From the IMG/VR virus record IMGVR_UViG_3300032038_000028, positions 1 to 64,000 of that record: DNA of 64,000 bases. One strand, written 5' to 3'. A model generated the notes under the pieces. The model saw only the letters and a program-made list of their open reading frames with translations. It made no database searches and was not told the origin of the DNA. Both the position numbers and the translations under genes were made by a program. Below are positions 4,904 through 41,590 of this stretch, in pieces. Within the stretch, counting starts at the first letter, position 1. Each line of letters begins with the position of its first letter. Origin of the DNA: a virus. Lineage: Duplodnaviria; Caudoviricetes.

Positions 4904-4928
4904 GTGGGATTCATCAGGAGGGTTGCGC

Positions 4929-7900
4929 ATGGCATACCAAAAAACTATATGGAGCCCGGGCGATACGATCTCATCGGCGGCGATGAACAAGATCGAAGAG
5001 GGAATCGCAGGGGTGGAAGCGGAGGTCGCCGAGGCGGGAAACGGGCTGGTATCCTATGCGGACGACCAGGGACTGACCACGGCACAGAAGGCGACTGCCC
5101 GCAGTAATATCGGCGCAGAAGCGGCCGGCGTGGCCGTGAAGTTTACCGAGGCACAGGTATTGACACCGGCGCAGAAAGCGCAGGCACAGGCCAACATCGG
5201 TCTGGAAAATATGGACGACATGGTCAGCGGCCGGGTGCGCTATGACGAGGCGCAGGAGCTGACCGAAGAAGAGAAGGCGCAGGCACAGGCCAACATCGGT
5301 CTGGATGACATCGGGTCGATGGTGACCGGGACAGTCAAGTACAGCGAGGCGCAGGAGTTGAGCCCGGAAGAGAAGGCGCAGGCGCTCGAAAACCTCGGGC
5401 TGGATCAGCTGGACAGTCTGACCGAAGGAACGGTCAAATACAGCGAAGCGCAGACGCTGAACAACACGGAGCGCGGTCAGGCCCGGAGCAACATCGGCGC
5501 AGCGGCGGCCAGTGAGCTGACCGACCTGAGCGGCGTGGTGTCCGAGCTGCAGCTGGCTGTAGACGCGGTCGGCAACGCGGTGACGAACATCACCCGGACG
5601 GAAGATGGCCTGCGCGTGGATTACTCCAGCGGGTCGAGCCAGACGATCGGGATCGATCAGGGGCTGGCCATCGACGCGGTGGAATACGACGCGAACCACT
5701 ATCTGCATTTCTATGACGAGGACGGCAACGACCTGTTCAACCCCGTCTTCATCGAGGGTGGCGGAGGCGGCGGTGCGAGCGGCTACGCGGTGCGCATCAT
5801 CAACGGGCTGACATCTACCACGCTGACCGTGGCGTCGAACCAGCGGACCGTGATCCCGTTCACCTACACGGAATACTACGGCTCCGAGCTGCAGAACCAG
5901 AACGGCCTGCTGACGGTGCAGTACAAGCTGGCGAGCGCGGCCAACTGGATTACCTACATCTCCAACCAGCAGATCCCGGCCAACGTGCAGCAGCGGCTGG
6001 ACGTGACCGACCTGCTGACAGAGGGCAGCGTGACCAACATCCGGCTGATCTGCGCCAACGGGCGGTCGGACGAGGATGCGCAGTCGAAGACCATCCAGTA
6101 CAACATCACGAGCGTGGCGCTGAATATCTCCACGACGTTCAACGCCTCCGCCACCTACACCGGCAACCTGACCATCCCCTACACCTGCACGGGCGCGGGC
6201 GTCAGGAAGACGGTATATCTGTATATTGATGGGGCGGAATATACCCATGTGGACGTCGGCGAGAGCCACAACCAGCAGCTGAGGATTCAGGTCAGGCTGG
6301 CCGGCAGCTACAGCTACGGGGCGCACAGCGCCAGACTGTGGTTTGCGACGCCCGAAGGGGCGACTTCCAACGAAGTACGCTTCCCGATTCTCTACGACAA
6401 TGGGGTCGGCGACGCCCCGATCGTCGGCGCTACCCTGCGGGACGACGTCATCGAAAACGGCGAGACGCTGTACCTGGACTACGTGTGCTATACGCCCGGC
6501 AGAGAGACGACCGAAAGCCTGTCGGTCAGGGTGTATTCATCCAACAACGGGGCGGAGACCAACTATTACGAGGCCTCCTTCAGCGACATCCAGAACAACA
6601 GAATGACCGCACTGCCGATCAGCCGGTATCCAGATCTCGGCACCGGGTACATCGAGCTGAGGAGCGGCACGACCACTTCGACCATCACCTTCACGGTGAC
6701 CGAGGTGCAGACGAGCTATGAGATCAACCCGGTGGAAACCGGCCTCGTCTACAGCTACCGGCCTGCCGGCTACACCAACAGCACCGTCGGACGCGAAGAG
6801 TACGTCTACGAGCTGGAAGACGCGGCGGGCAACGACGTCAACATCTATACCGAGCTGACGGATTTCAACTGGGTCAACGACGGCTACATTGACGGCGAAT
6901 CCCTGACCATCGCAGGGGCGGCCCGCATGAATATTCAGCTGCCGATTCTGACCACGGACTTCATCAACAAGGACAATCAAACCGTCGTACTGGACGCCGC
7001 GAGCGGAGCGACCGTGACGACCAGCGGACGTACGATCGAGTTTGAGTTCGAGCTGGACAACGTGACCAATCAGAACAGCGTAGTCTTCAGCTGCCTGGAC
7101 GCAAACGGGGTCGGCTTTGTGATCACGCCGCAGGTGTGCTATCTGCTGGCTGACGGTCAGGCTCCCGTACTGGACAGCACCGGCTTTATTGAAAACGAAG
7201 AATCTATCCCGTGCGCGTACATCAAGGACGAAAAGCACATCCGGGTATCCTTTGTCATTCAGCCGAAGACCTATACGCAGGACAACCGCTTCACCAGCTA
7301 CGCGAATATCTTCATCAACGGCGAGTACGCCAACAGCTATCTGTACGACGAAACGGCTGTGTACAACGGCACGGCCGGCATCACCATCGGATCGGACGAC
7401 TGCGTGACCAAGCTGTACGACGTCAGGATGTATAACCGCGGGCTGACGCGGGCAGAGGTGCTGCGCAACCACATGAACAGCGACATTGACATCCGCGACA
7501 GGATCATGCAGAACAGGTTCAATGACATCCTGAACAGCAACGGACATGTCGACTACGCAAAGGCCCGGCTCAAGTACCCGTGCTTGCTGTTCATCGGCAA
7601 CCTGTCCAACCACAAGAATGACCGCCAGTACATCGGCACCGTGCTGACCAAGCCGGACGGGGCAGGATCCTATCAGACGGAGTTCTCCATGCTGGACAGG
7701 GATCAGGCCGACCGCTTCGTATCTTCGATCAAGGTACAGGGCACGTCTTCCCAGCGGTTCATGCGCAAGAATTTCAAGGTGTATCTGGTCAGGAACAAAG
7801 CGGACGGCAGCGGGACGGAGAAGGTCAAGTACGTCCTGAAGGGCTACGACAGCAACAACCAGCCGCTGTCCAAGGGCGAGAGCACCCTGTGCTTTAAGAT

Positions 7901-10900
7901 GGACTACATGTCTACCGACCACGCCAACACCTTCAACGCCAACATCGCCGACACCCTGTTCAATGACAAGGAAGCCGGCAGTCTGGTACAGAACACGATC
8001 TGGGGCTTCAGGTGTCTACTGTTCAACATGGCAGCGGAAGATTATGACCCGGACACCCTGTTTGAAGACTATGCCCCGGACGTCATTCAGTTTGCGGGCG
8101 ACGGGTGTCTGAACAACGACAAGAGCAACGTCAGCTCCTTCGGCCTGAAGGACGACGGCGACGACGGGGCGGATACGCTTCAGCAGAAGTGGGAATTCAA
8201 GGACAACTCCAACCCGCTGTGCACGTTCACGACCGACCGGCTGATGGAAAAGATCTATGCGACGGACGGCACCAGCTATAAGCTGCAGGCCAGAAACGGT
8301 CTGGAAAGCTGCTACCCGGACGAAGGCGATCTGGATGACGCCGGCATTGATCCTGACTACAGCCACATTCAGGTACTGTTCTCCTGGGTGTATCAGCGCG
8401 CCAACTTCTGGGATGCTTCAACCCGGAGCGGTACCGGTGGCGTGTACGACGGCCGCAGCTATACGACGGAGCGGGCGCTCAAGCGGGCGATCTTCATTCG
8501 AGAGTTCCCGCGTCACTTCAACATGGAGCACGCGCTGATCTACTACCTGTTCATTGAATGGGTGGCGCTGTGTGATAACCGCGCCAAGAATATGTTCCTG
8601 AGCTGCAAGGACGTGCGGAGCGAATCGCTGGTGTTTACCGACACCTCCACGTCTATCTGGGACTGCGTAACGCCTGATACCGGCGTCGTGGACATCTCGA
8701 AGATCGACTGGGAGAACTCCACCTTCGGCGTCTGGTACACGGATCTGTACGACCTGGACTCCTGCTTCGGAGCGGAGAACAGCGGTTATATCCGCATCCC
8801 GTACTACGCGGACTGGAACTACATCCTGCCGAGAACCGGCACGCATCAGTTCAACGGCTACGACAGCCGGCTCTGGTGCATGTTTGAAGACGCCTTCGCC
8901 GACGAGATCAAGGCCCGGGCAAAGCTGCTGACCAGAAGCAACACCGGCAGCGGGACGCTCAACTACGCTGTGCTTCGGCAGGTGCATATCACCGAAAACG
9001 CTGAGCTGGTGTGCCCGGCCGTGGTCAACGAGGACATGGAGTACAAGTACGAAGACGCATGGACGAAGGGTTACTGGGATTACTCCGTGGACGTGGAGAA
9101 CCCGGTCTGGACGCAGACGAGCGCCTACAAGTATCTGCAGCGCGGCTCGCGTACGGAGCAGAAGGAATCCTTCATCTACCGGCGCTCGGTCATGCTGTAC
9201 TCCAAATACCAGTGCGACCAGTTCCTGAATGACCAGCTGGCCTTCAGGTGCGGTACGCCCGTCGCGATTGCCGACAGCACCATCTCCATGGCCGCCATTC
9301 AGGCCATGTGGCTTGGCGTCACCTACGGCGACAGCGGTTCGCCGCAGATGAGCGACAAGCGGGCTGCCGGGCAGACGGCCTCCATTGTTTCTCCGAACGT
9401 CCTCGGCCGGTCGGACAACATTCACATTCACGGCGCGAGCAACCTGACAGAACTGTCCAGTCTCGCGGCGTTTCACCCGTATGAGATCGGCCTGACCAAC
9501 GCGGGCAAACTGAAAACCCTGCTGATCGGATCCAACGCAGAGGGCTATACCAACGGCGACCTGTCCAGCCTGGACACCAGCGCGTGCGTGCTGCTGGATA
9601 CGCTGAACGTACAGGGCTGCACCGGCTTTACGGACACGCCCATCAACCTGACGGCCAACACGCTGATCAGGGCGGTGTATGCCGGTGGATCAACCGTGCC
9701 CTACTTCATGTTTGCCAACGGCGGCATTCTGGAGACGCTGGAGCTCGGACGGCCCAAGCGCATCGTGGTGCTGAACCAGCCGTACATGACGACATTCAGC
9801 TATGACAGTCTGGATGATCTGGTCATGCTGCGCGTGGAGAACACCCCGAACATGGGCGTGCTGGACATTCTGGCCGAAAAGCTGGCAGACCTGCGCCTTG
9901 GCATCCGTCTGGTTGGGATCGACGAGACCATTACCGGCTCGGACTTCTCTCTGCTCAGAGCGCTGACCAGCAGCGACGCACAGGGGAAACAGCTGAACGC
10001 GGACGGCAACCTGGTCAATGACCCGGAGGCATGGCCTGTGATCACGGGCACCATTCACTGCAACTACGTGGGCGACCGGACGCTGGCACTGCTGGGCGAA
10101 TACTACCCGAACCTTACGATCGACTATACGGACATCACGCCGCAGTACGTGGTGACGTTCGTCAACGAGGACGGCACACAGATTCTCGACAAGAAGGGCA
10201 ACCCGTACATTCAGTACGTGGATCAGGGCGGTACGCCGTATGACCCTGTAGCGGCTGGCGAAGTCTATACGCCGGTCAAGCAGGAAGACCAGCAGTACAC
10301 CTATACCTACAGCGGGTGGGATGACCTGAACAGCGCCGTGCTGGCCAACAAGACCATCAGGGCGCAGTATACAAACGTACCGAAGGTCTACACCGTGCGC
10401 TGGTTTGCCGCCAGAGGCGGAGAGCCGCTGAAGGTGCTGAACAACGTGACTTATGGCACCGAGGTCACCTACAACGCCAACCAGACCGTCTTCCCGACGC
10501 TGGATGACGAAGAGGCCAACCTGATCTACAAGGTCTTCACAGGCTGGGACAAGAGCACCGGCTTTATTACCGGAGACACTGATGTCTATGCCGTATGGGA
10601 CAGAGCTCCCATGATGATGCCAAAGACTGTAGAGCTGAAGGATATGACGCCGGCCCAGATCAGCGGTGTGGTGAAAAACAGACGGGCGGACGAATTCTGG
10701 GAACCCAAGGACTATATTGATATCCCGCTTGGCAAAGACTTCGAGTACAGCAACGTGAGAAGCGAAGTGGTGCTGCAGAACAAATTCTTCGGCGGCACCG
10801 TGGCGGAAGTCGTCAAGACCAACATCAAGTTGTTTGACGCGGACGCCCCGGACTTCACGCTGGCCATCGACTACGAGTTTACGGCCACCACGGCCAACGC

Positions 10901-12053
10901 TACGCTGGCAAGCTGTATGACGGAGGAGGGGGCCAAAGGCTTCCGCCTGCGCTACAACTCTGCGCCCGACATTCAGTGGGGCGACAAGCATCTGGTGATC
11001 GGCTACGGGATGCAGCGGGCCATCGTGGTGCTGCGGCATTACAAGGGATCCAACAACCTGTACGTGGTATCCAATAACCCGACCGCCGACTCCTATAACA
11101 ACACCGTGCTGATCGGTGAGCTGGTCAGGACGCAGTCTGCGGATACGGATGCTGTGCTTGCATTCGGTGGGCTGCCCATCGGATCCTCGTCCTACGACTA
11201 CCCGGCCACCGGATGGATTCACTGGTGCAAGATCTGGTACGCAGATCTCGGTAGCGTTGCTATCCGACAGCTGGCTACATGGCCGCACGAAACGCTGCGG
11301 ATGGAGTACATCGACTCCGGGCGGTACAGGCTTCCCGGAGATACAGCCGAGCGGTGCGCGGCATCGTTTATCGCCAACCACGGGCTGGCGCTGCTGAAGC
11401 AGATAAATCCAACTCAGAATAATACCGGCGGCTGGCCGTCGATGCCGATGCGTACCTTCCTGAACAGTATGTTCTTCAGCGCCCTGCCCTTTGCGTGGCA
11501 GGCCATGTTGACAACGGTCAGGGTGACATCAGTGGCTGGTAACTCCACCGACGCCGTGACGTCCGAAGACAAAGTTTATCTGGCATCCGGATATGAAATG
11601 AATACTCTGACAGGTACGACGTATGCGCAGGAGGGGTCGCCCATCGCATTCTATGCAACGAGACCGTCCTGTATTAAATTCTGCGGTCTGAAGATCTCTG
11701 AAGACGCGCAGATCATTTCCAGTCAGACAGACCCGACTCTGCTGGACGCGCTGTACACAATCCATGAGGGCGACGTCTGGATCAACGAGCAGTATTACGA
11801 TGTCGGCTATATGTACATCAGCGCCGAAACGGTCGCCAAGCACGGATATATCGGTTCCTATGCCATGAACTCGAGCGATCACATCGATGCTGCAGGGACA
11901 CAGGGAGGCAAATGGATTGCGGCCCGCAACCAGTGGACGCGTTCCGCGTCGACGGCTAATACTGTCAACTTCGCTATCGTCTCCTGGTACGGCGGTTCTA
12001 ACACATTCCCGACCACCAGCCGGATGCAGGTCGTTCCGTGCTTCTCTCTGTAA
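4929..12053 (+). CDS. Giant multidomain tail fibre/adhesin: N-terminal repeats, LamG-like, CotH kinase-like, LRR-like, InlB-B/Flg_new-like repeats and C-terminal DUF6273/C-type-lectin-like domain
   Basis: AGGAGG RBS before ATG 4929; motifs VQGTSS...KNFK, DNRAKNMF, YDLDSCFG (CotH-like); LDTSACVLLDTLNV (LRR-like); YVVTFVNEDG...YSGWD repeats; GGWPSMPMR and QWTRS...VVPCFSL at the C-terminus. Confidence 0.75.
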   Translation: MAYQKTIWSPGDTISSAAMNKIEEGIAGVEAEVAEAGNGLVSYADDQGLTTAQKATARSNIGAEAAGVAVKFTEAQVLTPAQKAQAQANIGLENMDDMVSGRVRYDEAQELTEEEKAQAQANIGLDDIGSMVTGTVKYSEAQELSPEEKAQALENLGLDQLDSLTEGTVKYSEAQTLNNTERGQARSNIGAAAASELTDLSGVVSELQLAVDAVGNAVTNITRTEDGLRVDYSSGSSQTIGIDQGLAIDAVEYDANHYLHFYDEDGNDLFNPVFIEGGGGGGASGYAVRIINGLTSTTLTVASNQRTVIPFTYTEYYGSELQNQNGLLTVQYKLASAANWITYISNQQIPANVQQRLDVTDLLTEGSVTNIRLICANGRSDEDAQSKTIQYNITSVALNISTTFNASATYTGNLTIPYTCTGAGVRKTVYLYIDGAEYTHVDVGESHNQQLRIQVRLAGSYSYGAHSARLWFATPEGATSNEVRFPILYDNGVGDAPIVGATLRDDVIENGETLYLDYVCYTPGRETTESLSVRVYSSNNGAETNYYEASFSDIQNNRMTALPISRYPDLGTGYIELRSGTTTSTITFTVTEVQTSYEINPVETGLVYSYRPAGYTNSTVGREEYVYELEDAAGNDVNIYTELTDFNWVNDGYIDGESLTIAGAARMNIQLPILTTDFINKDNQTVVLDAASGATVTTSGRTIEFEFELDNVTNQNSVVFSCLDANGVGFVITPQVCYLLADGQAPVLDSTGFIENEESIPCAYIKDEKHIRVSFVIQPKTYTQDNRFTSYANIFINGEYANSYLYDETAVYNGTAGITIGSDDCVTKLYDVRMYNRGLTRAEVLRNHMNSDIDIRDRIMQNRFNDILNSNGHVDYAKARLKYPCLLFIGNLSNHKNDRQYIGTVLTKPDGAGSYQTEFSMLDRDQADRFVSSIKVQGTSSQRFMRKNFKVYLVRNKADGSGTEKVKYVLKGYDSNNQPLSKGESTLCFKMDYMSTDHANTFNANIADTLFNDKEAGSLVQNTIWGFRCLLFNMAAEDYDPDTLFEDYAPDVIQFAGDGCLNNDKSNVSSFGLKDDGDDGADTLQQKWEFKDNSNPLCTFTTDRLMEKIYATDGTSYKLQARNGLESCYPDEGDLDDAGIDPDYSHIQVLFSWVYQRANFWDASTRSGTGGVYDGRSYTTERALKRAIFIREFPRHFNMEHALIYYLFIEWVALCDNRAKNMFLSCKDVRSESLVFTDTSTSIWDCVTPDTGVVDISKIDWENSTFGVWYTDLYDLDSCFGAENSGYIRIPYYADWNYILPRTGTHQFNGYDSRLWCMFEDAFADEIKARAKLLTRSNTGSGTLNYAVLRQVHITENAELVCPAVVNEDMEYKYEDAWTKGYWDYSVDVENPVWTQTSAYKYLQRGSRTEQKESFIYRRSVMLYSKYQCDQFLNDQLAFRCGTPVAIADSTISMAAIQAMWLGVTYGDSGSPQMSDKRAAGQTASIVSPNVLGRSDNIHIHGASNLTELSSLAAFHPYEIGLTNAGKLKTLLIGSNAEGYTNGDLSSLDTSACVLLDTLNVQGCTGFTDTPINLTANTLIRAVYAGGSTVPYFMFANGGILETLELGRPKRIVVLNQPYMTTFSYDSLDDLVMLRVENTPNMGVLDILAEKLADLRLGIRLVGIDETITGSDFSLLRALTSSDAQGKQLNADGNLVNDPEAWPVITGTIHCNYVGDRTLALLGEYYPNLTIDYTDITPQYVVTFVNEDGTQILDKKGNPYIQYVDQGGTPYDPVAAGEVYTPVKQEDQQYTYTYSGWDDLNSAVLANKTIRAQYTNVPKVYTVRWFAARGGEPLKVLNNVTYGTEVTYNANQTVFPTLDDEEANLIYKVFTGWDKSTGFITGDTDVYAVWDRAPMMMPKTVELKDMTPAQISGVVKNRRADEFWEPKDYIDIPLGKDFEYSNVRSEVVLQNKFFGGTVAEVVKTNIKLFDADAPDFTLAIDYEFTATTANATLASCMTEEGAKGFRLRYNSAPDIQWGDKHLVIGYGMQRAIVVLRHYKGSNNLYVVSNNPTADSYNNTVLIGELVRTQSADTDAVLAFGGLPIGSSSYDYPATGWIHWCKIWYADLGSVAIRQLATWPHETLRMEYIDSGRYRLPGDTAERCAASFIANHGLALLKQINPTQNNTGGWPSMPMRTFLNSMFFSALPFAWQAMLTTVRVTSVAGNSTDAVTSEDKVYLASGYEMNTLTGTTYAQEGSPIAFYATRPSCIKFCGLKISEDAQIISSQTDPTLLDALYTIHEGDVWINEQYYDVGYMYISAETVAKHGYIGSYAMNSSDHIDAAGTQGGKWIAARNQWTRSASTANTVNFAIVSWYGGSNTFPTTSRMQVVPCFSL
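5050..5510 (+). repeat. Five coding repeats (V[K/R]Y-x-EAQ-x-LT-x-x-[Q/E]KAQA-x-x-NIG)
   Basis: Visible in the translation and in DNA (gcgcaggcacaggccaacatcggtctgga occurs twice). Confidence 0.8.
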
Positions 12054-12751: not shown

Positions 12752-13033
12752 ATGAATATGAATAAGAAAATCACCGACGGCGTCTGGCAGCTGAGCAGCG
12801 ACACGGTACTGGCTGACGGCAGATGGCAGAGCGCGGGCGCATCGGTTTATATGGTAGAAAGCGAGAGCAAGCTCGCTGACATCCCGGACGCCGTACCGGG
12901 AGATATGGCCTACACTGCCGGGTACGAAAACATATGGCAGCTGGGCACTGACGGCACGACATGGGCCACCGTCAGCATCGACATGCAGGAAGGTATGGGA
13001 TCTGTGCTGGCCCTCAGGCGCATGGGTGTCTGA
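12752..13033 (+). CDS. Accessory tail protein paralog 1 (shared ~70-aa module only)
   Basis: DGVWQLS...KLADIPDAVPGDMAYTAGYENIWQLGTDGTTW, homologous to the N-termini of the next two ORFs. Confidence 0.7.
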   Translation: MNMNKKITDGVWQLSSDTVLADGRWQSAGASVYMVESESKLADIPDAVPGDMAYTAGYENIWQLGTDGTTWATVSIDMQEGMGSVLALRRMGV

Positions 13034-13069
13034 CACGACAGCCGGCTCATCTGAATCGAAGGGAGAAGA

Positions 13070-13762
13070 ATGATCATGGCGAGCGAATATGTAGCCGATG
13101 GCGTCTATCGCGTCAGCGGATTAAAAACACAGATGAAGGACGGGGCCTGGTCATCTGACCCGGGGATGTATCTGGTAGCGGATCAGACGAAGCTGGCTTC
13201 TATCGAAGGTGCGACCCCGGGCGACCGGGCGTTTACTGCCGGGTACAGGAAGGTCTGGCAGCTGGCGGCGGACGGGACGACGTGGGTCGAGCTCCCGGCG
13301 ACCATTGCCTCTGCAGTGGCTCAGGCGGCTGCGAGTGCGAGCGCTGCGGCTGCGGATGCGGCGAGGGCCGCGAGTGCGGCGGCGTCTATCCCGACGGATT
13401 ACGATACCGTGCGCAGCGACGTAGCTGTCCTGAAAACCGAGGCTGCAAAGAGCCTCACGGTCAATGCGGTGCCGGCCTCTGCGCTGACTCTTGGCGGCGG
13501 ATGGGTGGATCTCGCGATGACCGTGGACTGCGATGAAATACTGGCGGTGGCGGCAACCGGAAGGTGTGTGATCAATCTGCAGTACAACGACTATACGAAG
13601 GTTGTCTGTACGCAGAGAGAAACCGTTCAGTACCCGAACCTTACTCCGCAAGTGTTCTTCACCGGCATGTCGCTGGATACCCCAATGTATATTATCAACG
13701 TCAAGATTACGGCTGACGGCGCACAGGCCGCAGTCATCGGGACTGTTGCCATCTCTACCTGA
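13070..13762 (+). CDS. Accessory tail protein paralog 2 (shared module, Ala-rich linker, unique ~100-aa C-domain)
   Basis: ADGVYRVSG...PGDRAFTAGY..VWQL..DGTTWVELP, then AAASASAAA and IPTDY. Confidence 0.75.
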   Translation: MIMASEYVADGVYRVSGLKTQMKDGAWSSDPGMYLVADQTKLASIEGATPGDRAFTAGYRKVWQLAADGTTWVELPATIASAVAQAAASASAAAADAARAASAAASIPTDYDTVRSDVAVLKTEAAKSLTVNAVPASALTLGGGWVDLAMTVDCDEILAVAATGRCVINLQYNDYTKVVCTQRETVQYPNLTPQVFFTGMSLDTPMYIINVKITADGAQAAVIGTVAIST

Positions 13763-13781
13763 TTGTAAAGGAGTATGAGTT

Positions 13782-15632
13782 ATGACGAATGAATTGATCG
13801 CTGACGGCATCTATCGCGTCAGTGGTATGGAGACCTCGCTGAAAAACGGGGCATGGGTGTCGGACGCCGGGACGTATCTGGTGACCAACCAGACGAAGCT
13901 CGCTGATATTCCCGATGCCCGTCCGGGCGACATCGCCTTTACAGCGGGATACGGCCACATCTGGCAGCTGGATGTGGACGGCACGACCTGGGTGGAGCTG
14001 CCGAAAACTGCCGCCGGTACTGCGGCTTCTCAGGCTGCGGCCAGTGCGACCGCTGCTGCCGGAAGCGCCTCTGCCGCGGCTGCGAGCGCCAGCCAGGCGC
14101 AGACTGTTGCCGCCTCTATCCCCGCGGATTACACCTCTCTGAGCAACTCCGTGGTTGATTTAAAGAGCGCCTTAGACGATACAGAAAACGCTATCGGATC
14201 TGAAAATAATATAATAAACGTCGATATAACACCAGTTAGCGGACACAGATACTATTATGATTATCCAAACCCCGGCTTCAATGATATTTCAGATGTTGGC
14301 ATGACTTATTTTTCGACTATTTTAAACGTGCAAGCAGGGCAGATTTATTATTACAGCGGCCGTGTATATAACTATGATAAACAGTATTCTGTTATCGTTA
14401 CGGATGACAATAACACCGTGCTTTTATACGATCTTGGTTATACGTCAGATACAAATGTTGTTGATTATCAGTTTACAATTCCACAAAATGGCACAAAGTT
14501 GTATATCACATCTTACAAAAGCGATTCCGACCCACTTACCAGCGCGCTTGCGTTAAAGATGCTTAAAAAACAGTTGTTCCATGTAAACCGCATCACAGAA
14601 GAAATCGGCGGGGTAATTCCGGAATACTATACAGCGAACGATTGGTTGCAGAGCAAAATGAAAAACATCAATGATAAATGTGGATTTATAAACGGCGTGG
14701 TTTTCCCATTTATCACAGATGTTCATTTTGCCAATAACGCAGGAAACAGCAAGTTTTTACTCCGAGAAATCCTCGAAAAAACGGCATGTTCCTTTGTAAT
14801 CGGCGGCGGGGATTATCAAGGGGGATTCGGTGGGGCCGAAGATTTGTCTGCCCAATTCAAGGCTATGTTTGATTTTACTGGATATGTCGGGCATGACAGA
14901 TTTTTCTCCGTTGCAGGGAATCATGATTTTTATGAGCAAGAAAGTATTGGAAGCAGTACAAGGATAAACGCCACATATGGCGAGGTTTACAATGCCATCT
15001 TCCGTCCGTCTGAGCGTTGGCAACGTGAAAGGATGCCGGGTGGGTATTACTGCATAGATATTGATTCACAAAAAACACGCTTTATCATGCTCAATTCTCA
15101 TGAGCCATCTCCGGTAGCAAGCGGAACAGAAATAGATGGACTGATAAGAGTAAGGCCGGAGCAGATTCAATGGTTGATTTCTGCCCTGACTGAGAAAACA
15201 GGATATAGAATTATTGTTATAAGCCATGCAACATCCGACCCTGATATGCCAGACTATTCAGCAACAATAGAAAACGTTCAGAAAGTCCTCGTTGCATATG
15301 CAAATCATACTACTGACACTATAAGGTTTACTGATACGTGGAGCGTAAATGTTGATTTTACTAATGCTCAAAACACGATAATATGCCACATCAATGGACA
15401 TTCGCATGTTGATGCGAGCCATGTGGATAGGAATGTGTTATCAATATGCACCACATGCGACGCCTGTTTGCAAGATGACGGATATGGTGCAGTAATGGGA
15501 ACAGTAACAGAACAGGCTTTCGATGTTTTCTGTATTGATTATGATGCTATGACTATAAAGGCTGTGAGAGTTGGCAGAGGCAGTAATAGAGCGTGGGCGT
15601 ATGTCAATGAAGCGTGGCAAATTGTTAATTAA
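13782..15632 (+). CDS. Accessory tail protein paralog 3 fused to a calcineurin-like metallophosphoesterase
   Basis: Shared N-terminal module; metallophosphoesterase motifs DVH, GGD, GNHD, SH, GHSH; abrupt switch to AT-rich DNA after ...VVDLKSAL. Confidence 0.85.
   Translation: MTNELIADGIYRVSGMETSLKNGAWVSDAGTYLVTNQTKLADIPDARPGDIAFTAGYGHIWQLDVDGTTWVELPKTAAGTAASQAAASATAAAGSASAAAASASQAQTVAASIPADYTSLSNSVVDLKSALDDTENAIGSENNIINVDITPVSGHRYYYDYPNPGFNDISDVGMTYFSTILNVQAGQIYYYSGRVYNYDKQYSVIVTDDNNTVLLYDLGYTSDTNVVDYQFTIPQNGTKLYITSYKSDSDPLTSALALKMLKKQLFHVNRITEEIGGVIPEYYTANDWLQSKMKNINDKCGFINGVVFPFITDVHFANNAGNSKFLLREILEKTACSFVIGGGDYQGGFGGAEDLSAQFKAMFDFTGYVGHDRFFSVAGNHDFYEQESIGSSTRINATYGEVYNAIFRPSERWQRERMPGGYYCIDIDSQKTRFIMLNSHEPSPVASGTEIDGLIRVRPEQIQWLISALTEKTGYRIIVISHATSDPDMPDYSATIENVQKVLVAYANHTTDTIRFTDTWSVNVDFTNAQNTIICHINGHSHVDASHVDRNVLSICTTCDACLQDDGYGAVMGTVTEQAFDVFCIDYDAMTIKAVRVGRGSNRAWAYVNEAWQIVN
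14154..14175 (+). other. Putative recombination site L (GTTGATTTAAAG-AGCGCC-TTAG)
   Basis: 11/12 inverted match to 15639-15650; sits at the GC-to-AT transition inside the CDS. Confidence 0.65.
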
Positions 15633-15650
15633 ATAACACTTTAACTCAAC
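15629..15650 (-). other. Putative recombination site R (GTTGAGTTAAAG-TGTTAT-TTAA on the - strand)
   Basis: Inverted partner of site L; overlaps the stop codon; marks the return to GC-rich DNA; about 95 bp upstream of a tyrosine recombinase. Confidence 0.65.
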
Positions 15651-15665
15651 ACAGGCCCCGCTGAT

Positions 15666-15695
15666 TTGCAAAAAGCCGCACCCGCGTGCTATAAT
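15666..15695 (+). promoter_or_regulatory. Sigma70/SigA-type promoter for the recombinase
   Basis: TTGCAA-18 bp-TATAAT with extended TGn. Confidence 0.6.
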
Positions 15696-15744
15696 CCAGT
15701 CATCCCATCTGGGGGATAATTTTATAGAAACGGGGTGCGGCGCC

Positions 15745-16725
15745 ATGTCTATGGAAGCCAGAGCTACTTTCATGCACAGTCTCGAACAGAGGCTGTCTTC
15801 TTTATTAACGGCCGACGATATGAAGCGCGTGATGACAGAGGTGGCAGAGAACCTTGACGGGTACGAGCTGACCGACAACCGGGGCGAGCCGGACGATAAC
15901 GACGACCTGCTGGACGCCTACCTGGCGACCATGGCCGTACAGGGCCGCAGCCCGAAAACCATTGAGCGGTACCGGTACGTGCTGCAGCGCATGATGACCG
16001 CGCTCAGGACGGGCACCCGGCGAATCACGGTGTACCACCTGAGGCGGTATCTCGCAGATGAGAAGGCACGCGGGATCAGCGACAGCACGCTGGATGGTAT
16101 CAGGCAGGTGTTCTCAGCGTACTTCAACTGGCTGCAGAAGGAGTCCCTGATACAGGTCAACCCCACTACCAACCTCGGCGCGATACGGCGACCGAAGAAG
16201 ATCAGAGAAGTCTACAGCGAATCAGAACTCGCCCGGCTCAAGATGGGTGCGCAGAGTGCCCGCGACCGGGCGATCATTTATTTTCTGGAGTCTACCGGAT
16301 GCCGCATCAACGAGGTGGTGCAGCTCAACCGGGACGACATCAACTTCTCCAAGCTGGAATGCAAAGTGTTGGGTAAGGGTAACAAGGAGCGCACGGTGTA
16401 CCTCAACGAGGTAGCGGCCATGATGCTTCAGACATATCTGGATCAGCGGACGGACGACCTGCCCGCTCTTTTTATTGGCAAAGGGACCGAGCGCATGCAT
16501 GCCGGCGGGGTGAGAGCCATGCTCTGTAAGCTGGGCGCGGCTACGCGGGTAGCTCACGTCCATCCCCATCGTTTCAGGAGGACGCTGGCGACCAACCTCA
16601 TCCGGCGCGGCATGGTGATCCAGGAGGTCGCCGCCATCCTCGGGCACGACAAACTCGATACGACCATGAAGTACGTCGTGCTTAATCAGGATGACGTCCA
16701 GCACTCCTACCAGAAGTTTTCTTAA
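15745..16725 (+). CDS. Tyrosine recombinase (XerC/D-like)
   Basis: Catalytic residues TGCR, GKGNKER, HRFR, LGH...Y; N-terminal SAM-like core-binding domain (SPKTIERY). Confidence 0.92.
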   Translation: MSMEARATFMHSLEQRLSSLLTADDMKRVMTEVAENLDGYELTDNRGEPDDNDDLLDAYLATMAVQGRSPKTIERYRYVLQRMMTALRTGTRRITVYHLRRYLADEKARGISDSTLDGIRQVFSAYFNWLQKESLIQVNPTTNLGAIRRPKKIREVYSESELARLKMGAQSARDRAIIYFLESTGCRINEVVQLNRDDINFSKLECKVLGKGNKERTVYLNEVAAMMLQTYLDQRTDDLPALFIGKGTERMHAGGVRAMLCKLGAATRVAHVHPHRFRRTLATNLIRRGMVIQEVAAILGHDKLDTTMKYVVLNQDDVQHSYQKFS

Positions 16726-16740: not shown

Positions 16741-17421
16741 TTGAAGATTCAGGTCAACATCACCCGGCAGGAGAACGCTGACTATTTCAGCGCGGCTGTC
16801 GGGGATACTGTAGAGGTAGAACTCGAAGACTATGTGGCGGCCGTAACGGCGTCCGAGCTCGCATCAGGCGGGACGGAAGGATGCCGGGCACAGGCAGTGG
16901 CCGCAAGGACGTTCGCTGTCAACCACGGCGTGCTGAAGGGCAAGGCCATCTCGGACAGCTCTTCTACGGCACAGGCCTACCGGGCCAGCCGGAACGACCC
17001 GGCGAAGTACCCGACCGCTGTACAGGCGGCGAAGGATACGGCCGGGGAGATCCTGACGTACAAAGGCAGCGCGATCAGCGCGGTGTACTCGGCCGGCAAC
17101 GGCGGGCGCACGGTATCATCGAAGGAGCGGTGGGGAGGCGACAGGCCTTACCTGATCGCACAGGACGACCCGTGGGACGCAGCGGCCGGAGGTGGACGCA
17201 CAGGACACGGCGTAGGCATGAGCCAGCGCGGAGCCCGATACGCCGCATCACAAGGCAGAACCTACCGGGAGATTCTGGCGTTCTATTATCCCGGCACACA
17301 GATCGAGACGATTGACAAAGGGGGTGGTCGCATGATATCAGCTTCTGATTTTGTCGAGAAGGTTAAAATACCGCTCGCCGAAAGATGGGGCTATATCCTA
17401 TCTACGACACACACGGAGTAA
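16741..17421 (+). CDS. SpoIID/LytB-domain cell wall hydrolase (N-terminal part of lysin)
   Basis: EDYVAAV..SE, AQAVAARTF, QAY, GHGVGMSQ.GA, ILAFYYPG motifs. Confidence 0.85.
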   Translation: MKIQVNITRQENADYFSAAVGDTVEVELEDYVAAVTASELASGGTEGCRAQAVAARTFAVNHGVLKGKAISDSSSTAQAYRASRNDPAKYPTAVQAAKDTAGEILTYKGSAISAVYSAGNGGRTVSSKERWGGDRPYLIAQDDPWDAAAGGGRTGHGVGMSQRGARYAASQGRTYREILAFYYPGTQIETIDKGGGRMISASDFVEKVKIPLAERWGYILSTTHTE

Positions 17422-18494
17422 TCTGGACGGCGGAGAAGCAGGCGGCTGCGACCAGAGAGCAGACGGTCGCCTACGGAAAACAATGGATCGGCCGCATGGT
17501 GACCGACTGCAGCGGGCTGATCTACTGGGCCTGCATGCAGCTGGGCGAGAAGGTTGTGCATCACGCGACCTACCTGTACACCGACTGGAGCAGGCCGAAG
17601 GGCAAGCTGGTCAGCATCCCGGTCAACGCCGCCGGGGAAACCAAAGGGCGCGACGACGGCCAGCCCATCAAACCCGGGACGCTGGTGTTTCTCAAGGGCA
17701 ACAAAGAGAAGATTCACCACACCGGGGTCTATATCGGCGACAACACCGTCATTGAAGCAAAGGGCACAAAGTCCGGCGTGACGACGAGCCAGCTCAGTCA
17801 CTGGGAGTACTGGGGTGAGCTCAAGGTGCTGGACTATACAGGCGCGAAGACGCCGGAAAGCGGAGAGAAACCCATGAGCAGAACCATGCGGGCGGTGGTC
17901 AATAACCCGCACAACAAACTGAATGTACGCAAGGAGCCGTCCCAGGCGGCGGCCAAGGTCTGTCAGGTGCTGAAGGGCACCATCGTTGACGTCGTCGAGC
18001 AGACGAACGCCGAGTGGTGGAAGATCAGCTATAACGGAAAGACGGGCTACACGATGGCGAAGTACCTGCAGCTGCAGGGGCCGGCAGAGGAACCTGTCGC
18101 AGAGGAACCTGTGATCGAGTGGCCCGCTGAGGTTGAACCCGTAGCGGCTGAGCCTGTGGCAGAAGAGCCGCAGAAGAAGGAATCCCTGCTGGACAAGATC
18201 AGGGGGATCTTCGGCGGCCGGAAGGAAGAGCTGCCGGAGGAAGCGCCAGAGGAGCTGCCCGAAGACGAAGAGGCCGAAGACGCACCCTTCGACAAGGTGG
18301 TCGGCCCTGAGACGGTACAGGCGCAGCTGGTGGGGATCGCCGGGGATCTGGACATCCTGACCCGGCTGGTGAACGACGCCAAGGCTACGCTGAACCCGGA
18401 AGAGCTGGTCGAGATCCTGAACGCGCTGGACAAGGTGCTGCCGGAAATCCAGCAGGCCAAGGACGATATGTGGACTATGATTACCGTAGGATAA
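17332..18494 (+). pseudogene. NlpC/P60 peptidase + SH3 domain lysin, split by a frameshift near 17398-17402
   Basis: DCSGL and HTGVYIG...IEAKG (NlpC/P60), LNVRKEPS...WWKISYNGKTGY (SH3b); its natural N-terminus MISASDFVEK...WGYI is in a different frame. Confidence 0.7.
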
Positions 18495-25263: not shown

Positions 25264-28200
25264 ATGACTGAAAAAGATGTTCAGGCAACGGGTAATGGTA
25301 TTTTTAATATCGGGGATATACAGGTTGTCCAAGGCGGCAAGGATGGTGCCACAACGATACATGTTGTTGTCGAATCCAAAGATAATGGTGGGCGCGACAA
25401 CCAGAACAATATGCCGGATATGTCAGGTTTTATCAGTGCCGCAGAGGCTCTACAGGCATCTGTAGACCGCCTGACTGAGGCAACCAACGGAGAGCTCCAG
25501 GCGACCGGAGTATATCAGGCACTGCGCGATGAAATTGCGGGCCTCAGGTCTGGCGACAGCAAGTATTACAATGCCAGACGTGGGGAGGCGATGTCTGCTG
25601 AGGGGGCTCGATGGCTTGAGCAGTTGCTGAACGACCCGCACATTGCCGATATGCCAGCCGCTATGCGGGCGCTATGGAATGACATCATGGAAGACCATGG
25701 CGAGAATATCTCAGACTCCTGGCGTCAAAGGGCGAAAAATGCTGTCAGCATGATGGACAATGTCAGCCAGATGATCACCGGCCTCTGGAGCGAAGACGAT
25801 ATCAGGCATCCTGAACGATATAATAGTAAAATTACGATCCCGGAGCTGCGGATGACCCCGGAGAAAATGCGTGCCCAAAACCGGGCGCAGCTCGAAGCTA
25901 TTGCTCAGAATACCATGGCATATGTCAGAGAGAGCAGAGCGCTGGAAGACGAACTGCTGGCCAAGACAAAGGGGCAGCAACAGCAGCCGCCAGCAGCGGA
26001 ACGCACACGGGAGCGCCGCGAAAAACAGCAGGATGAGCAGAGGGCAGCGCAGCGCGAACAACGTGAGACCGGCGGCCGGAAAGAGACATCAATCAAAGCT
26101 GACAAGGTGCAAGTCAGCAGCGACAAAGCACCGGAAGTCAGCGGTGGGCAGTCGGACCAAGGGTCGGAGCGTAAGACGGGCAAAGCGCAGGCCCGCGGAG
26201 CGCTTGAAGATGCTGTCCGAGATCTCGAGCAGAAGGGTGGCGCTGGTGGTGCTCCGGGCGGTAGCGGCAAGGCGCCGGTTGGCGGTGCCGGTGGCGGAGC
26301 AGGAGGTGGCAGTGGTACTCCACCCGTAGTGCCGCCCACCGGTGGCAGTGGCAGTACGCCGCCTGTCGACCGAAACACAGTCAGGTATTTTGACAACCTG
26401 ACGGAGCTGAACAAATCCCTGCGTGAAGACTATAAACTCGGCGGGATTGCTGATGACATCGTCAAACAGCTCGGTTCGCTCAAATCGTCTGCGTCGGATA
26501 TTTCTGCGACATTTGACGGCAAAGGCAACCTGAGTGGCATTTCGCTGAATGCAAAGAGCGTAGCTCTTGGCGACGTCAAAACTGCCAGGTTGCAGTATGG
26601 TGTAACGGGTTCGCCGGAAGAAGGATACGCATGGAGCGGAGCAGCATCGAGGACACTGGCCAGCCCGCAGAAACTGAAAGATCTACAGAAAGCGCTGAAC
26701 AGCGATACGGCCGCGCAGCAGGAGCGTCTGAATACATGGCTGAAACATGATGCGCTGGCGCTGAATGCGGACGGGCGTAACACCATGCGCGAGCGCCTGC
26801 TGGACAACATTTCTGACTATGTATATCAGAATGCTAAGGGCCAGACTAAACTCGGGCACAAAGACGCGGCTACCGGTAAGGTCACCAACCTGACCAGAGA
26901 CGAGCTGAAGGGGCTTACGGATAACCTCGACACATTCGATCAGCGGATGTCTGCGATCAATAAAGGTATGCGTCAGGATCTCGTGTCCCGCGGCATTGAT
27001 GATATACAGGGTAAGTTTGATAAGCGCGTCGGGATGGTAGCGGGGTTGAAAGACCGGCTGAATGCGATCGGCATCAACCCGAATGATGCAAAGGCCGTGT
27101 TTGGCAATGGCGAAAGCGTCAAAAAGCTTTTCGGCGATATCAATAAGGCGACGCAGAGTTTTCAGAAACACACCGGCAATATCGAAGCACAGGTTGAAGA
27201 TTACAACAAACTCCATGACCTGACGCGCAGGGCACAGCAGGCGGTACAGCAGGAAGAAAGCCAGTCACGGGCAGCGGTTTCCGGCGCACAGCGCAGCGCC
27301 CGCATCCAGAGCAGGAAGGACGCGGCCAACAGGGCACTCGGTATGCCTGGAGCGGAGCAGAACGCGAAGCAGGCAGAAAATCTTCGTCAGGCAATGACAC
27401 AGCTGGACAAAGCGAAGACGCCGGCCGAAACCGTTGCTGCTCTGGCAAACGTCAAGAAATACACGGACGATCTGACGCGCAGCACCAGGGAATACGGTAA
27501 GCAGGCAGATAAAGCTGAGGCCACCCAGACCAGGATGGCAAATGCCGACAAGCAGATCGCCGACATGGGCGCAAAGCTGAAGGCGGCGGGGCTTGATAAG
27601 CCGCAGAGTCTGAAGGACGCAGAGGCCGCCAGCCGCTACTACGGCTCGTCGAAGGACGCCGCGAAGCAGCAGGGCTGGGCCGATAAAACGCTGGAGCATC
27701 TCGGCACTGCGAACACTGAAGTTTCCAAGGCACTCAAACAGTTTGAAAGCTCGTCGAAGAAAGCCGAAAGTCAGTACCAGCGGATGATGAAGAATGATCT
27801 GCTTGGCAGCGGCGACCGGAAGGCTATCGAAAAAGCCTACGGCGACTACTCGGCGAAGCAGAATCAGTCTACGCTTGAGAAGCTGCAGACGGCCATGAAT
27901 ACGGCCACGGCCAACATAGCGGCTTCTGATAAGAGCAACAAAACCGAAGAGCTGCGGGCGAGAGTTGCCAGCAAGCGCGTGGATCTGGAAGCGTCCAGCA
28001 GACGGGCAGGCGGCCGTGACTCCGGGAAGTGGAGCAAGGAGCAGGTTACCCTTGCAAAAGCGGCCAGCGCTAATCTGACGGCGGCCGAACAGGCATTGAG
28101 CGACGGCGGTATTAAAAACGCAAGATCTTATCTCTCCAGAGCGACAACCCAGATCGGGCAGCTGAATAAACAGCTTGGCGAGACAGAGCGGGTTGCCAAC

Positions 28201-31200
28201 AAAGCCGCCGCTGCGCAAAAGCAGAATGATGCAGAGGCAGAGAGGAGCGCAAAAGAGCAGACCCGCCAGGCGGTACAGACCGAAGCCGCTCAGACCAGAG
28301 CGGAACGCAATGCGTTTTATGGGAACGTCAACGAGGCTGCCAGAGATCGTATGGATCTGGCCAAGGCGACCTACGCGGCGACCGGGGACGCCAAGGATCT
28401 GAAGAAATACCAGAACGAAGTCAACAACGTACAGTGGGCCGAAAAGGTCGAGCAGATGAAGGCCTACCAGGAACAGCTTAGCCTGCTGATGAACCCGACC
28501 GGAACGCCGGGACGTAATGACAGCGCCAACTGGGCGGTGGCTCAGCAGCAGCAGCTTCAGAATCTGATGAATCTGCAGCAGCAGTTCCAGAGCATCCGTC
28601 ATAATGGACGCGATCAGTCTGCGGCTGATACTGTGCTTGGGCAGATGAGGGCAGAAACCCAGCAGCTGATGCACGACCTGAACGCGACCGAGAAGATCAA
28701 GCAGGCGATGGCAAAGACCACCGGCGGAAAAAATTACTCCCGCGTTGATCAGGATCTGCGTGACAACCTGAATCAGGCAATGGATGCCATGATGAGCGCC
28801 GCGCCAGATCAGTTTGCCGCGAAGATGAACGCCGTACAGGAAGCGCTAAAGGCGGTCAACACTTCCATGCAGGCGATCGGCGCACAGGATTACTGGGCTC
28901 AGCAGTCTGCCGCGCTGGATCAGTATCAGGCGAAGCTGAACAGCATGAACCAGCGCAATGGCGGCATGGACAGCTGGACGGAAAGCCAGAGGAGTACATC
29001 TGCCGGCATTCAGCAGGCTCTCGATGCGGCGAGGGCGGCAATGAGCGCCAAGGACATGGGCGCCTATCAGGCCGCGATGGGCCGGGTGCAGGGAAACAGC
29101 AGGCTGCTTGACACCTCCCTGACCAACATCAGCAGGCTGGCGGGCGGAGCCAAACCACCTGTAGACGCGCTGACGCGGTCGCTGATGAACATCGCCGCAC
29201 CCATGATGCTGTGGCGCAGATTCACCGGCTACATGAAGAAGGCGGCGCAGAACGTCTCCGCGATCGACAGCCAGATGGCCGACCTGAAGAAGGTCACCAG
29301 CAACACCAGCGCCGAGTATGATCAGTTCCTGACCAGCACGGGCAAGAACGCTGTGGCTATCGGCTCCTCGATCAGCGACCTGGTTGCGACGACGAGCACG
29401 TTTGCGCACATGGGCTACGGGTTGACCGAGTCTCAGGCGCTGGGCGTAACGGCGACGAAGTTTGCCAACGTAGGCGGCTTTAAGAATACGACCGACGCGG
29501 CAGATACCATGATCGCGGCCATCAAGGGCTTCAGCGACCTGGAGATCGGCGACGCGGATATCGTTGGCGATAAGCTGACCGCAGTGGCCAACAACTACGC
29601 GGTCACCGTAGAAGATATCTCTAACGGCCTGCAGAAGTCAGCCTCTGCGCTGAACGTTGCGGGCAACAACATTGACCAGAGCACGGCCATGATCACGGCC
29701 ATCGCTGAGGTCACCAGAGACGCTGGAGCTGCGGGCTCAGCGCTGAAGGTTCTCAGTATGAGAATTCGTGGTGCAAAGGCGGAGCTCGAAGATGCTGGCG
29801 AATCTACAGAAGGCATGGCCAGCAGTACGGCCAAGATGCGTGCCGAAGTCATGGGGCTGACCAATGTTGACGGTAAAGGCGGCGTCGACATCATGGCCGA
29901 CGAGGAGACCTTCCGGAGCACCTATGACATCATGAACGATATCGCTCAAGTCTGGGGTAAGATGAGCGATATCAACCGCAGCGCCCTGCTGGAGAAACTG
30001 GCCGGCAAGGTCAGGTCAAACCAGGCAGCGGCCCTGCTTGAAAACTTTGAGACGGCCAGGAACGCTCTGGAAACCGCCCAGCAATCAGAGGGCACCATGA
30101 ACCGGGTGCATCAGAGATGGCTGGACTCCGTAGAAGCGCGCAAGGCCCAGTTTGAAGCAGCGCAGGAAACCGCATCGATGACGGCTATGCCCGCCAACAC
30201 TCTGAAGGGACTGTATCAGGCTGGGACAGTTGGCATGAATATGCTAAACAGCTTGATGGGTAACATCTTCGGGCTGGGCGTTGGATCTGGCAGTCATGGC
30301 GTAGCGGCTGGCATTATGGGTGCGGCCTCCATGCTCAGGTCTGGCAACGGTAACATCTGGGCTGGCATTGGCAACGCATTTAACCTGCACAGGGGCGGAC
30401 GCGGACAGGCAGATATTATTGCGGCCTACAACCGGGCGTATCAGGACGCCACAAACCCGCTGACCTATAACAATAAAGAGGCATCGCTGGCGGCCGCGCA
30501 GATCAACGGTCGTACGGCGAACAAATACACGCAGCGGCTTATCGAACAGGCCGAAGGGACTGTGGATGCTACCAAAGCTACGGGTGGGCTGATCAGCTCG
30601 CTCAAGAGTTTTACAAAGAATGCAATCGGCGGCATCGCAACGTTTGCTGCTATCAACGCCGGGGTGGCCCTGCTGAACGCCAGCATGGACTGGCTGAGCG
30701 AAAATGTCGTCAACCGCTCCGAACATCTCAACGCTGTCGCATCCTCTTCGTATGCTCAGTACGAAGAGACGAAACGTAATGCGGATGCGGTGATTGCGGA
30801 GCGTGATCAGGTCGGCCAGCAGGTACAGGAGCTGGAGAAGAAGCAGGCGGAAGGCACCATTACAACGCAGGAAACCTCGCGACTTGCTCAGCTGGAAAGC
30901 CAGCTAAGAGAACTTGAACATCAGGCAGCTGTGACAAGACAGCAGCAGGTGGCAGAGAGTGACCAGGCATTTACCGACTGGATGGCAGCTCGTGCATCGC
31001 GTGGGCAAAATGTCATGGGAACGTCTGCGATGTATAAGACGTTGGGTGCTATGCTTGGCAATGGCGGCTTTGATTCGGTTGGCGACGCTGTCACGTCGGT
31101 ATTGGGTAGCGTATGGGAGAGCACAAGCGGCTGGGCGACTGGCCTGTGGACCGGTATTAACCCCACTCACTCAATGCAGACCCTGTACCGTGAAGAAGCG

Positions 31201-41539: not shown

Positions 41540-41590
41540 TTTGCATAAAAATGAGGTATCACATGGGCGTTATTTGCATAAAAATGCAGT
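41540..41590. promoter_or_regulatory. Two ARG-box-like sites (direct repeat TTTGCATAAAAATG) beside the attP core
   Basis: 41573-41590 TTTGCATAAAAATGCAGT fits the ARG-box consensus WNTGMATWWWWATKCANW at all 18 positions; 41540-41557 is a partial match. Confidence 0.55.

Follow-up and report, generated by a model that had tools for sequence, protein, structure and literature searches.

In the Rin shufflon of Bifidobacterium prophages, each genome holds 4–5 alternative tips, which are changed by inversion at a single type of 11-nt site (Mavrich et al. 2018, PMC6109161). In the pneumococcal tvr locus, TvrR excises and reintegrates segments of hsdS under the guidance of two types of repeat (Kwun et al. 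2018, PMC6265443). PsrA/CreX of the ivr/cod locus rearranges coding segments in frame by inversion (PMC7096588). Here we describe a locus in a gut phage genome of ~113 kb (Caudoviricetes; IMG/VR virus record IMGVR_UViG_3300032038_000028), where the enzyme tip of a fibre-like gene lies between two short recombinase-type sites, L and R, and is followed by the gene of a tyrosine recombinase. We refer to the replaceable position between the two sites as the slot. The window that we analysed is the first 64 kb (64,000 nt) of this record, which is 112,852 nt long and is rated complete.

A clean, in-frame replacement of a fibre tip is usually explained by chance recombination followed by selection. 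An earlier reading of the DNA letters alone (hereafter, the sequence-only reading) had proposed instead that a recombinase exchanges the tip at two sites, and we followed up this proposal. With moderate confidence, we favour a two-site, spacer-restricted cassette exchange as the process that replaces the fibre tips at this locus. If this is true, a dedicated enzyme together with two spacer-coded sites would provide a defined mechanism for tip replacement. It would account for a turnover of tips that far outpaces that of the remaining genome, 95–99% identical N-termini being found beside unrelated tips, and would predict that tip-trading partners are phages having a common R spacer. Such a system would also offer a natural site and enzyme toolkit for retargeting phages of hard-to-engineer gut anaerobes.

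Tip replacement between two fixed edges

The fibre-like gene is an open reading frame (ORF) at 13782–15632 (+) that encodes 616 aa. Both motifs pointed out by the sequence-only reading were found where it had placed them. The first, GTTGATTTAAAGAGCGCCTTAG (14154–14175), forms the left edge of an AT-rich block. The second, TTAAATAACACTTTAACTCAAC (15629–15650), contains the TAA stop codon of the gene (15630–15632). The GC content along the locus goes from 0.60 to 0.41 and back to 0.59. In a maximum-likelihood two-change-point fit, the first change point was located at 14155 (support 14124–14179), exactly on L, which bears out the claim that the gene switches abruptly from GC-rich to AT-rich DNA at this site. 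The second change point was at 15731 (support 15642–15827); this right-hand break is blurred because the recombinase promoter is AT-rich.

The part of the gene to the left of L (13782–14155, +) is conserved in relatives. It comprises an N-terminal module and an Ala-rich coiled-coil linker, and ends in ..IPADYTSLSNSV. The exchangeable payload (14171–15632, +; aa 131–616; Pfam PF00149, phrog_7158) has a GC content of 41% and is laid out as a ~170-aa beta-rich part followed by a calcineurin-like metallophosphoesterase (~nt 14709–15410). The Pfam Metallophos family (PF00149) matched aa 310–543 (E 3.5e-7; 31.3 bits against a gathering score of 21.5). A sequence search of the PDB gave no match to the payload, and so no relative with a solved structure. 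In other phages, payload relatives at 64–70% aa identity are fused to different N-termini. The 616-aa product is best explained as a tail-fibre-like virion protein having a constant N-terminal anchor, a coiled-coil linker and an exchangeable tip.

A search of 5.8 billion proteins yielded 38 relatives of the 616-aa protein. Among them, 21 align over residues 1–130 and then diverge at one column, right after ..DLKSA. It had been predicted that relatives share the N-terminus up to this junction and carry unrelated C-termini, and this is what we observed. In the 18 proteins of lineage 1, the N-terminus is 95–99% identical and is followed by ~17 different continuations; the constant part of lineage 2 is ~70–78% identical. 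The continuations include other metallophosphoesterases (~25–29% identity), SGNH hydrolases, an M14 peptidase, domains without a Pfam match and a short tail accompanied by a diversity-generating retroelement (DGR). Five pairs of proteins have identical 130-aa N-termini and unrelated tips.

We compared the DNA of 10 relative loci (numbered L004 and so on below) with the window. Homology to the window ends at 14170–14174 in 9 of the related loci, all having the L joint, and resumes at 15629–15642 in the 8 loci whose contigs extend to the right edge. The left breakpoints thus fall within 5 nt and the right ones within 14 nt, at the palindromic cores described below, and it is exactly at these sites that the tips are replaced in the population. 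Unrelated inserts of 1.4–3.6 kb lie between the breakpoints.

The sequence-only reading had taken the whole C-terminal domain as the unit of exchange. Unrelated C-termini are indeed swapped, but the inserts are not always single domains and can hold extra genes. Additional small ORFs occur in the inserts of L007, L008 and L024, and a gene pair of the ribbon-helix-helix (RHH) type is present on the opposite strand in L010. In L011 (6393–9963) and in L004, which is 77% identical to it, the slot holds a DGR. The L011 element consists of a 33-aa fibre tail, a DUF6273 protein, a 141-aa ORF, a reverse transcriptase and a pair of 127-nt repeats (7565–7691 and 8178–8304; 85% identity), which look like the variable and template repeats. 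We also noted Cys-rich, zinc-ribbon-like micro-ORFs (46 and ~60 aa) between the fibre stop and R in L024 (6660–6990) and L008 (2830–3036).

The contigs of L008, L022, L023, L024 and L006 end within 30–1000 nt of the slot. Assemblers break contigs where variants coexist, and these contig ends suggest the presence of several variants of the cassette within a single sample. Relatives of the locus at the DNA level were few. A megablast search against GenBank phages gave no match, IMG/VR contained few relatives, and a metagenome scan with the R flank returned one short contig (L109). The loci L020 and L021, picked up through 17-mer matches, were discarded as chance matches in AT-rich phages.

The L and R sites

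The L site (14156–14179, +) reads TGATTTAAA / GAGCGC / CTTAGACGA, that is, an outer arm, a spacer and a weak cassette-side arm, and is translated in frame as D-L-K-S-A-L. The end of homology, the GC break and codon usage all mark it. The R site (15625–15650, +), where homology resumes, reads TTAATTAAA / TAACAC / TTTAACTCA(AC) and has the stop codon within its left arm. The reverse complement of the R outer arm matches the L arm at 11 of 12 positions. With at most 1 mismatch, GTTGAKTTAAAG occurs only at L and R, in inverted orientation, in the whole 112,852-nt genome; the pair of inverted motifs claimed for the edges of the block is therefore real and genome-unique. In the window phage alone, the 18-nt inverted match between L and R has p ~0.02 in a shuffle test, and the main weight for the sites rests on the related loci rather than on this value. 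Both sites fit one palindromic core, TGAyTTAAA, 6 nt, TTTAAmTCA.

From these loci we built a site model having two arms, a 6–7-nt gap and 16 fixed positions, of which at least 13 had to be matched. Over 215 kb of fibre loci, the model gave 21 matches, compared with 4.0 in shuffled sequences. Four of the 21 are in an AT-rich Terrisporobacter phage (L026); the remaining 17 all lie at L, at R or, in L013, between the fibre stop and the holin gene. In a control of 877 kb around hsdS-locus recombinases, the model matched 39 times, compared with 25–46 in shuffles. The window R site matches the model at 15 of the 16 positions, and its core is identical in L008, L011, L024, L109 and in the unrelated backbone L006. 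In L008, L024 and L109, the site reads TGACTTAAA / TAACAC / TTTAACTCA, with arms that are inverted copies at 8 of 9 positions.

The two-arm layout came out stronger than the sequence-only reading could tell: the cassette-side (inner) arms, which had no part in building the model, also match the arm consensus. Those of R score 6–8 of 8 beside unrelated cassette DNA. At L, the inner arm scores at least 6 in 5 of 15 sites, with a null probability of 0.009 per site (in-frame positions of the same cassettes). The cassette-side arm of L is a perfect inverted copy in L006 (TTTAAATCA) and reads TTTAACTAA in L023 and TATAACGCA in L005; it is weaker in the other loci, that of the window matching 4/8.

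The spacers are specific to position, as had been anticipated for conserved sites at the two edges. GAGCGC, or a single-base variant of it, is present at every L in five backbones. At R, lineage 1 and L006 have the spacer TAACAC, lineage 2 and L022 have GGAAAC, and the related forms GGATAC, GGACAC and GGCATC occur in L108, L012 and L013, respectively. L and R thus have like inverted arms, spacers that differ at all six positions, and a replaceable segment between them. Fibre tips in the unrelated backbones L012, L108, L005/L006 and L013 are delimited by these L and R types as well. At R, L006 shares 19 identical bases, and R-like cores are located at the stop codon in L108 and L012. The sequence-only reading had tied the R motif to the stop codon; this part did not hold in the relatives, where R is not bound to it.

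The codons of L provided another line of evidence. The Leu of DLKSA is encoded by TTA in four backbones where TTA makes up 0.4% (the window backbone), 2.2%, 2.4% and 6.3% of the Leu codons. A paralogue just upstream of the fibre-like gene (13070–13762, +; 230 aa) served as an internal control: it lies within the conserved left flank of the relatives, never swaps and has no L-type site, and its joint, ..VAVLKTEA, is written CTG AAA ACC. As the rare TTA is held in four backbones and the non-swapping paralogue uses CTG, we concluded that the L codons are constrained at the DNA level. DLKSA is also a joint motif at the protein level, and so selection on the protein explains part of the conservation of L, but not its codons. 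Conservation of R in unrelated backbones is not a protein effect, since R is non-coding. We had also considered that L and R covary as inverted repeats between backbones. This was dropped, as the matrix of own-versus-other scores was not diagonal; partial L/R matches between backbones are due to the common palindromic core.

An 11/12 inverted repeat exactly at both edges, unique in the genome, could also be the mark of a simple invertible switch, in which an L–R flip turns the payload off and the fibre ends 17–65 residues after the arm. The nearest relatives of the slot enzyme are the hsdS-locus recombinases, a group that includes invertases (PMC7096588), and tyrosine invertases are known from phages through the Rin shufflon (PMC6109161). 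Against this, the spacers differ at all six positions, and, beyond R, the reverse strand stays open for just 17–65 junk codons and encodes no alternative tip. A minus-strand ORF of 61 aa in L007 was considered as an alternative tip in frame with R and was rejected, as a stop follows after 26 codons. No inverted-state product was detected among 38 near-length and 11 shorter homologues or in the fetched loci. In agreement with the sequence-only reading, which had expected L and R not to invert with each other, neither an inverted-state fusion protein or contig nor an empty form was seen among ~26 assemblies or proteins of the relatives. Inversion also cannot explain 17 different cassettes in identical flanks. 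We therefore regard a simple switch as very improbable.

The picture of exactly two sites needed amendment. The L and R edges stand, but extra R-type sites in direct order flank sub-cassettes. Direct copies of the R left arm and spacer flank additional segments in L008 (207 nt), L010 (514 nt, containing the RHH gene) and L023, and L007 has a probable additional R-type site in direct order. These arrays are short, with one extra direct-order site having the same spacer per locus, and circles were not observed. By analogy with integrons, this arrangement points to an uptake of small cassettes at R-type sites as well.

These direct repeats with identical spacers also speak for a mixed model, in which the action of the recombinase is limited to inserting and excising small cassettes at R-type sites in direct order, the in-frame L joint being used by homologous recombination. 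Such a division of labour would be in line with the position of R, which adjoins the recombinase promoter as attI adjoins intI, and with the action of TvrR by excision and reintegration (PMC6265443). However, the L arm is the same as that of R, and L006, L023 and L005 have a good second arm at L, which is hard to reconcile with L not being a site. We consider this mixed model improbable.

The slot recombinase and its neighbours

The ORF at 15745–16725 (+) starts 95 nt after R and encodes an Xer-type tyrosine recombinase of 326 aa, as assigned from Pfam, NCBIfam, alignment and PDB matches (Phage_integrase and SAM-like, E 1e-31). The SAM-like core-binding domain (PF02899/PF13495) covers aa 55–135 and the catalytic domain (PF00589) aa 167–314; a lambda-type arm-binding domain is lacking. 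The catalytic set is intact, R187, K211/K214, H275, R278, H301 and Y310 being invariant in an alignment of relatives. The best PDB matches were XerC-like 4a8e, XerA 5hxy and XerD 1a0p. All NCBIfam Xer equivalog scores are below their cut-offs, and the protein is therefore not a true XerC, XerD or XerA. Its identity as an IntI-type integrase was also rejected (TIGR02249, 59 bits against a cut-off of 265; NF011946, 44 against 435).

A separate phage integrase is encoded at 41570–42682 (−; PF00589, NCBIfam), and integration therefore does not depend on the slot recombinase. These results confirmed that an intact recombinase with a promoter of its own follows the slot in a phage that already has an integrase. 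We also noted a third tyrosine recombinase of 313 aa near 83.1–83.7 kb (L016:1231–2172), outside the window.

The recombinase follows the slot in every relative with a long enough contig. In the three slot lineages, the recombinases are 74–79% identical, and the right-hand neighbours are different: lineage 1 has lysis genes, lineage 2 a transglutaminase-like gene and the integrase, and L022 a divergent helix-turn-helix (HTH) gene of its own. In GTDB, with one genome per species, no close prophage relative of the recombinase was found, the best identity being 42%. The nearest cellular relatives (35–42% identity), as far as examined, lie in hsdS shufflons, between hsdS fragments that belong to restriction-modification systems of type I; in L075, L044 and L049 they are located between Methylase_S genes with HsdM and HsdR.

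Terrisporobacter phage TPELB_ph1, whose genome encodes another integrase as well, has a 33% relative between its last tail gene and the holin gene. A 13-nt inverted repeat of this phage was not counted as a site, as it is part of a terminator hairpin. The contig L027 ('Bacteriophage sp.'; MT835621.1, 5047–5752), from human faeces, was rejected as a fibre locus and is an hsdS inverton. In it, 21-nt inverted repeats (86%) surround a reversed hsdS half-gene, and the inverton adjoins a 34% relative of the slot recombinase.

The control region of the recombinase gene (15666–15741, +) was delineated from the sequence and from RNA folding. The best promoter-like site of the region, TTGCAA-18-TATAAT with a TG, lies at 15666–15695, and a terminator-like hairpin (15702–15717) comes right after it. 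A 20-nt imperfect inverted repeat (15675–15694 and 15722–15741) pairs the promoter with the ribosome-binding region; this repeat is kept in lineage 2 (L009). In read-through RNA, the leader hairpin has a folding energy of −41.7 kcal/mol (z −3.2; fold of window positions 15660–15765).

Two features recall the tvr locus, where recombinase expression is damped by an attenuator and by small regulator genes. The leader hairpins resemble the attenuator that limits tvrR expression. Regulator-type genes are also found on the opposite strand just before the recombinase gene, an RHH gene with a 100-aa ORF in L010 (7143–7576) and an HTH_26 gene in L022 (7122–7331); these resemble the TvrAT toxin-antitoxin-like regulators.

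Another explanation is ordinary fibre mosaicism, according to which homologous or short-homology recombination, carried out by RecA of the host or by a single-strand annealing protein of a phage, acts at the conserved DLKSA joint and a short conserved 3' element. The neighbouring recombinase would then do something else or play no part at this locus. Several observations count against cassette exchange, and some of them favour mosaicism directly. DLKSA precedes unrelated C-termini in many fibre proteins having other N-termini. The same payload and L/R-like motifs are present in L012 and L108, without a recombinase within 3–6 kb. The four-gamete test indicated ordinary homologous recombination inside the 390-nt N-terminal region; recombination of this kind surely moves cassettes among close relatives, whose exchange therefore needs no special enzyme. 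The site evidence itself has weak places: the inverted L/R match of lineage 2 is weak (p 0.3 in the shuffle test), 10 of the 15 L sites, that of the window included, have a weak cassette-side arm, and the site model was derived from the same loci, leaving the inner arms, the foreign backbones and the control DNA as its only independent checks.

On the other hand, the identity at the joints is only ~11–17 nt. Exchange by homology does not predict two inverted arms around 6 nt, a layout that extends to the non-coding R side and to the cassette side, nor the retention of a rare TTA codon in four backbones. Mosaicism predicts scattered breakpoints without site architecture, and these were seen only inside the N-terminal flank, not at the tip edges. 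The recombinase has moreover stayed with the slot through three rearranged contexts. Taken together, we consider mosaicism an unlikely explanation of tip replacement, though less so than inversion or the mixed model. The view that the recombinase belongs beside the slot held for three diverged lineages, but the same sites also occur in phages without a neighbouring recombinase; the sites of L012 and L108 may be used in trans or may be relics.

The fibre-like gene is the last of three tandem genes (window 12752–14150) that have a ~75-aa N-terminal module in common. The first (12752–13033, +; 93 aa), recognised by DNA similarity to 13896–13992, has no payload and is kept in relatives as a gene of 91–93 aa. 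The second is the paralogue at 13070–13762, which has the same module and the Ala-rich linker (69% nt identity to 13782–14067). In a library search, the module (aa 49–95) was found repeated 7–14 times in giant proteins of 2,000–3,300 aa (P0054–P0056). The window itself has giant ORFs at 4923–12053 (2,376 aa) and 25264–38556 (4,430 aa); the former directly precedes the fibre cluster and has a weak DUF6273 match near its C-terminus. On the other side of the slot, lysis-type genes (16741–18494, +), with a SpoIID domain and with NlpC/P60 and SH3 domains, form the conserved right flank of lineage 1 (95% nt identity in L007 and L008).

Proposed exchange and known systems

In the mechanism that we favour, the tip, sometimes with extra genes, would be held between sites having like inverted 9-nt arms and unlike 6-nt spacers. 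The slot recombinase would bind these sites and pair like with like, L with L and R with R, the partner being a co-resident phage or prophage. Two crossovers, L×L and R×R, would then replace the tip in frame, and the unlike spacers would prevent inversion or deletion of the cassette by recombination between L and R. Through extra R-type sites in direct order, small cassettes could come and go in the manner of an integron. It is established that sites with unlike spacers do not exchange productively under Cre, FLP, lambda Int or XerCD. We infer that the same rule applies to the slot recombinase, and this fits the absence of inverted and empty forms. For each new in-frame fusion to arise, a crossover is needed within ~11–17 common bases at L and ~16–20 at R; these bases are laid out like a tyrosine-recombinase core, and the gene beside them encodes a recombinase from a domain-shuffling clade.

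A wider reading, which we put forward tentatively, is that many unrelated temperate phages of gut Firmicutes share one L/R site pair and thereby a distributed, integron-like pool of host-range genes. A phage that encodes the recombinase could take an in-frame tip for host recognition or wall degradation from a prophage or a co-infecting phage, including those that lack the enzyme. We found no near-identical cassette in two backbones; the closest pair is only 70% identical in aa sequence, and so no recent transfer across backbones can be shown.

In the literature searched, we found no account of a phage fibre gene that undergoes two-site cassette exchange in nature.

The proposed logic of the slot is that of recombinase-mediated cassette exchange as engineered with heterospecific lox or FRT sites, where the same arms, incompatible spacers and a replaceable segment are combined, a logic that predicts exchange without inversion or deletion. 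The engineered systems, however, are laboratory designs with proven enzymes; in the slot, catalysis is presumed and many L sites have one weak arm. The serine-invertase fibre switches (Gin of Mu, Cin of P1 and Min of p15B) likewise use site-specific recombination to alter the C-terminal part of a fibre that recognises the host, but their enzymes are of another family, inversion is their sole mode of action and both alternatives stay in the genome.

With integrons, the slot has in common a recombinase gene beside the insertion point, promoterless cassettes of unrelated function and putative extra cassettes bounded by direct repeats. Site-bearing cassettes are also found in genomes without the enzyme, as with CALINs. 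The slot sites, on the other hand, are short palindromic cores in double-stranded DNA, not folded attC hairpins, and a structural gene takes in the first cassette as an in-frame fusion.

The tvr and ivr loci resemble the slot in the class of recombinase, in the in-frame swap of coding-domain segments and in the use of two repeat types. They differ in that they shuffle a restriction-specificity gene within one chromosome, whereas the slot would use a pool distributed over many phages. The neighbours of the slot are a fibre gene and lysis genes, and the identity of its recombinase to the hsdS-locus enzymes is only 35–42%.

The Rin shufflon has a receptor-binding protein with a constant N-terminus and a variable C-terminus, an armless Xer-like tyrosine recombinase in a phage with a separate integrase, and a short crossover site inside the gene with another just past its 3' end, and in each of these respects the slot is like it. 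The two differ in where the variety is kept. Rin inversions are seen between relatives, and none were seen among the slot relatives; instead, each slot genome holds one tip between two different spacers, and the variety lies across genomes.

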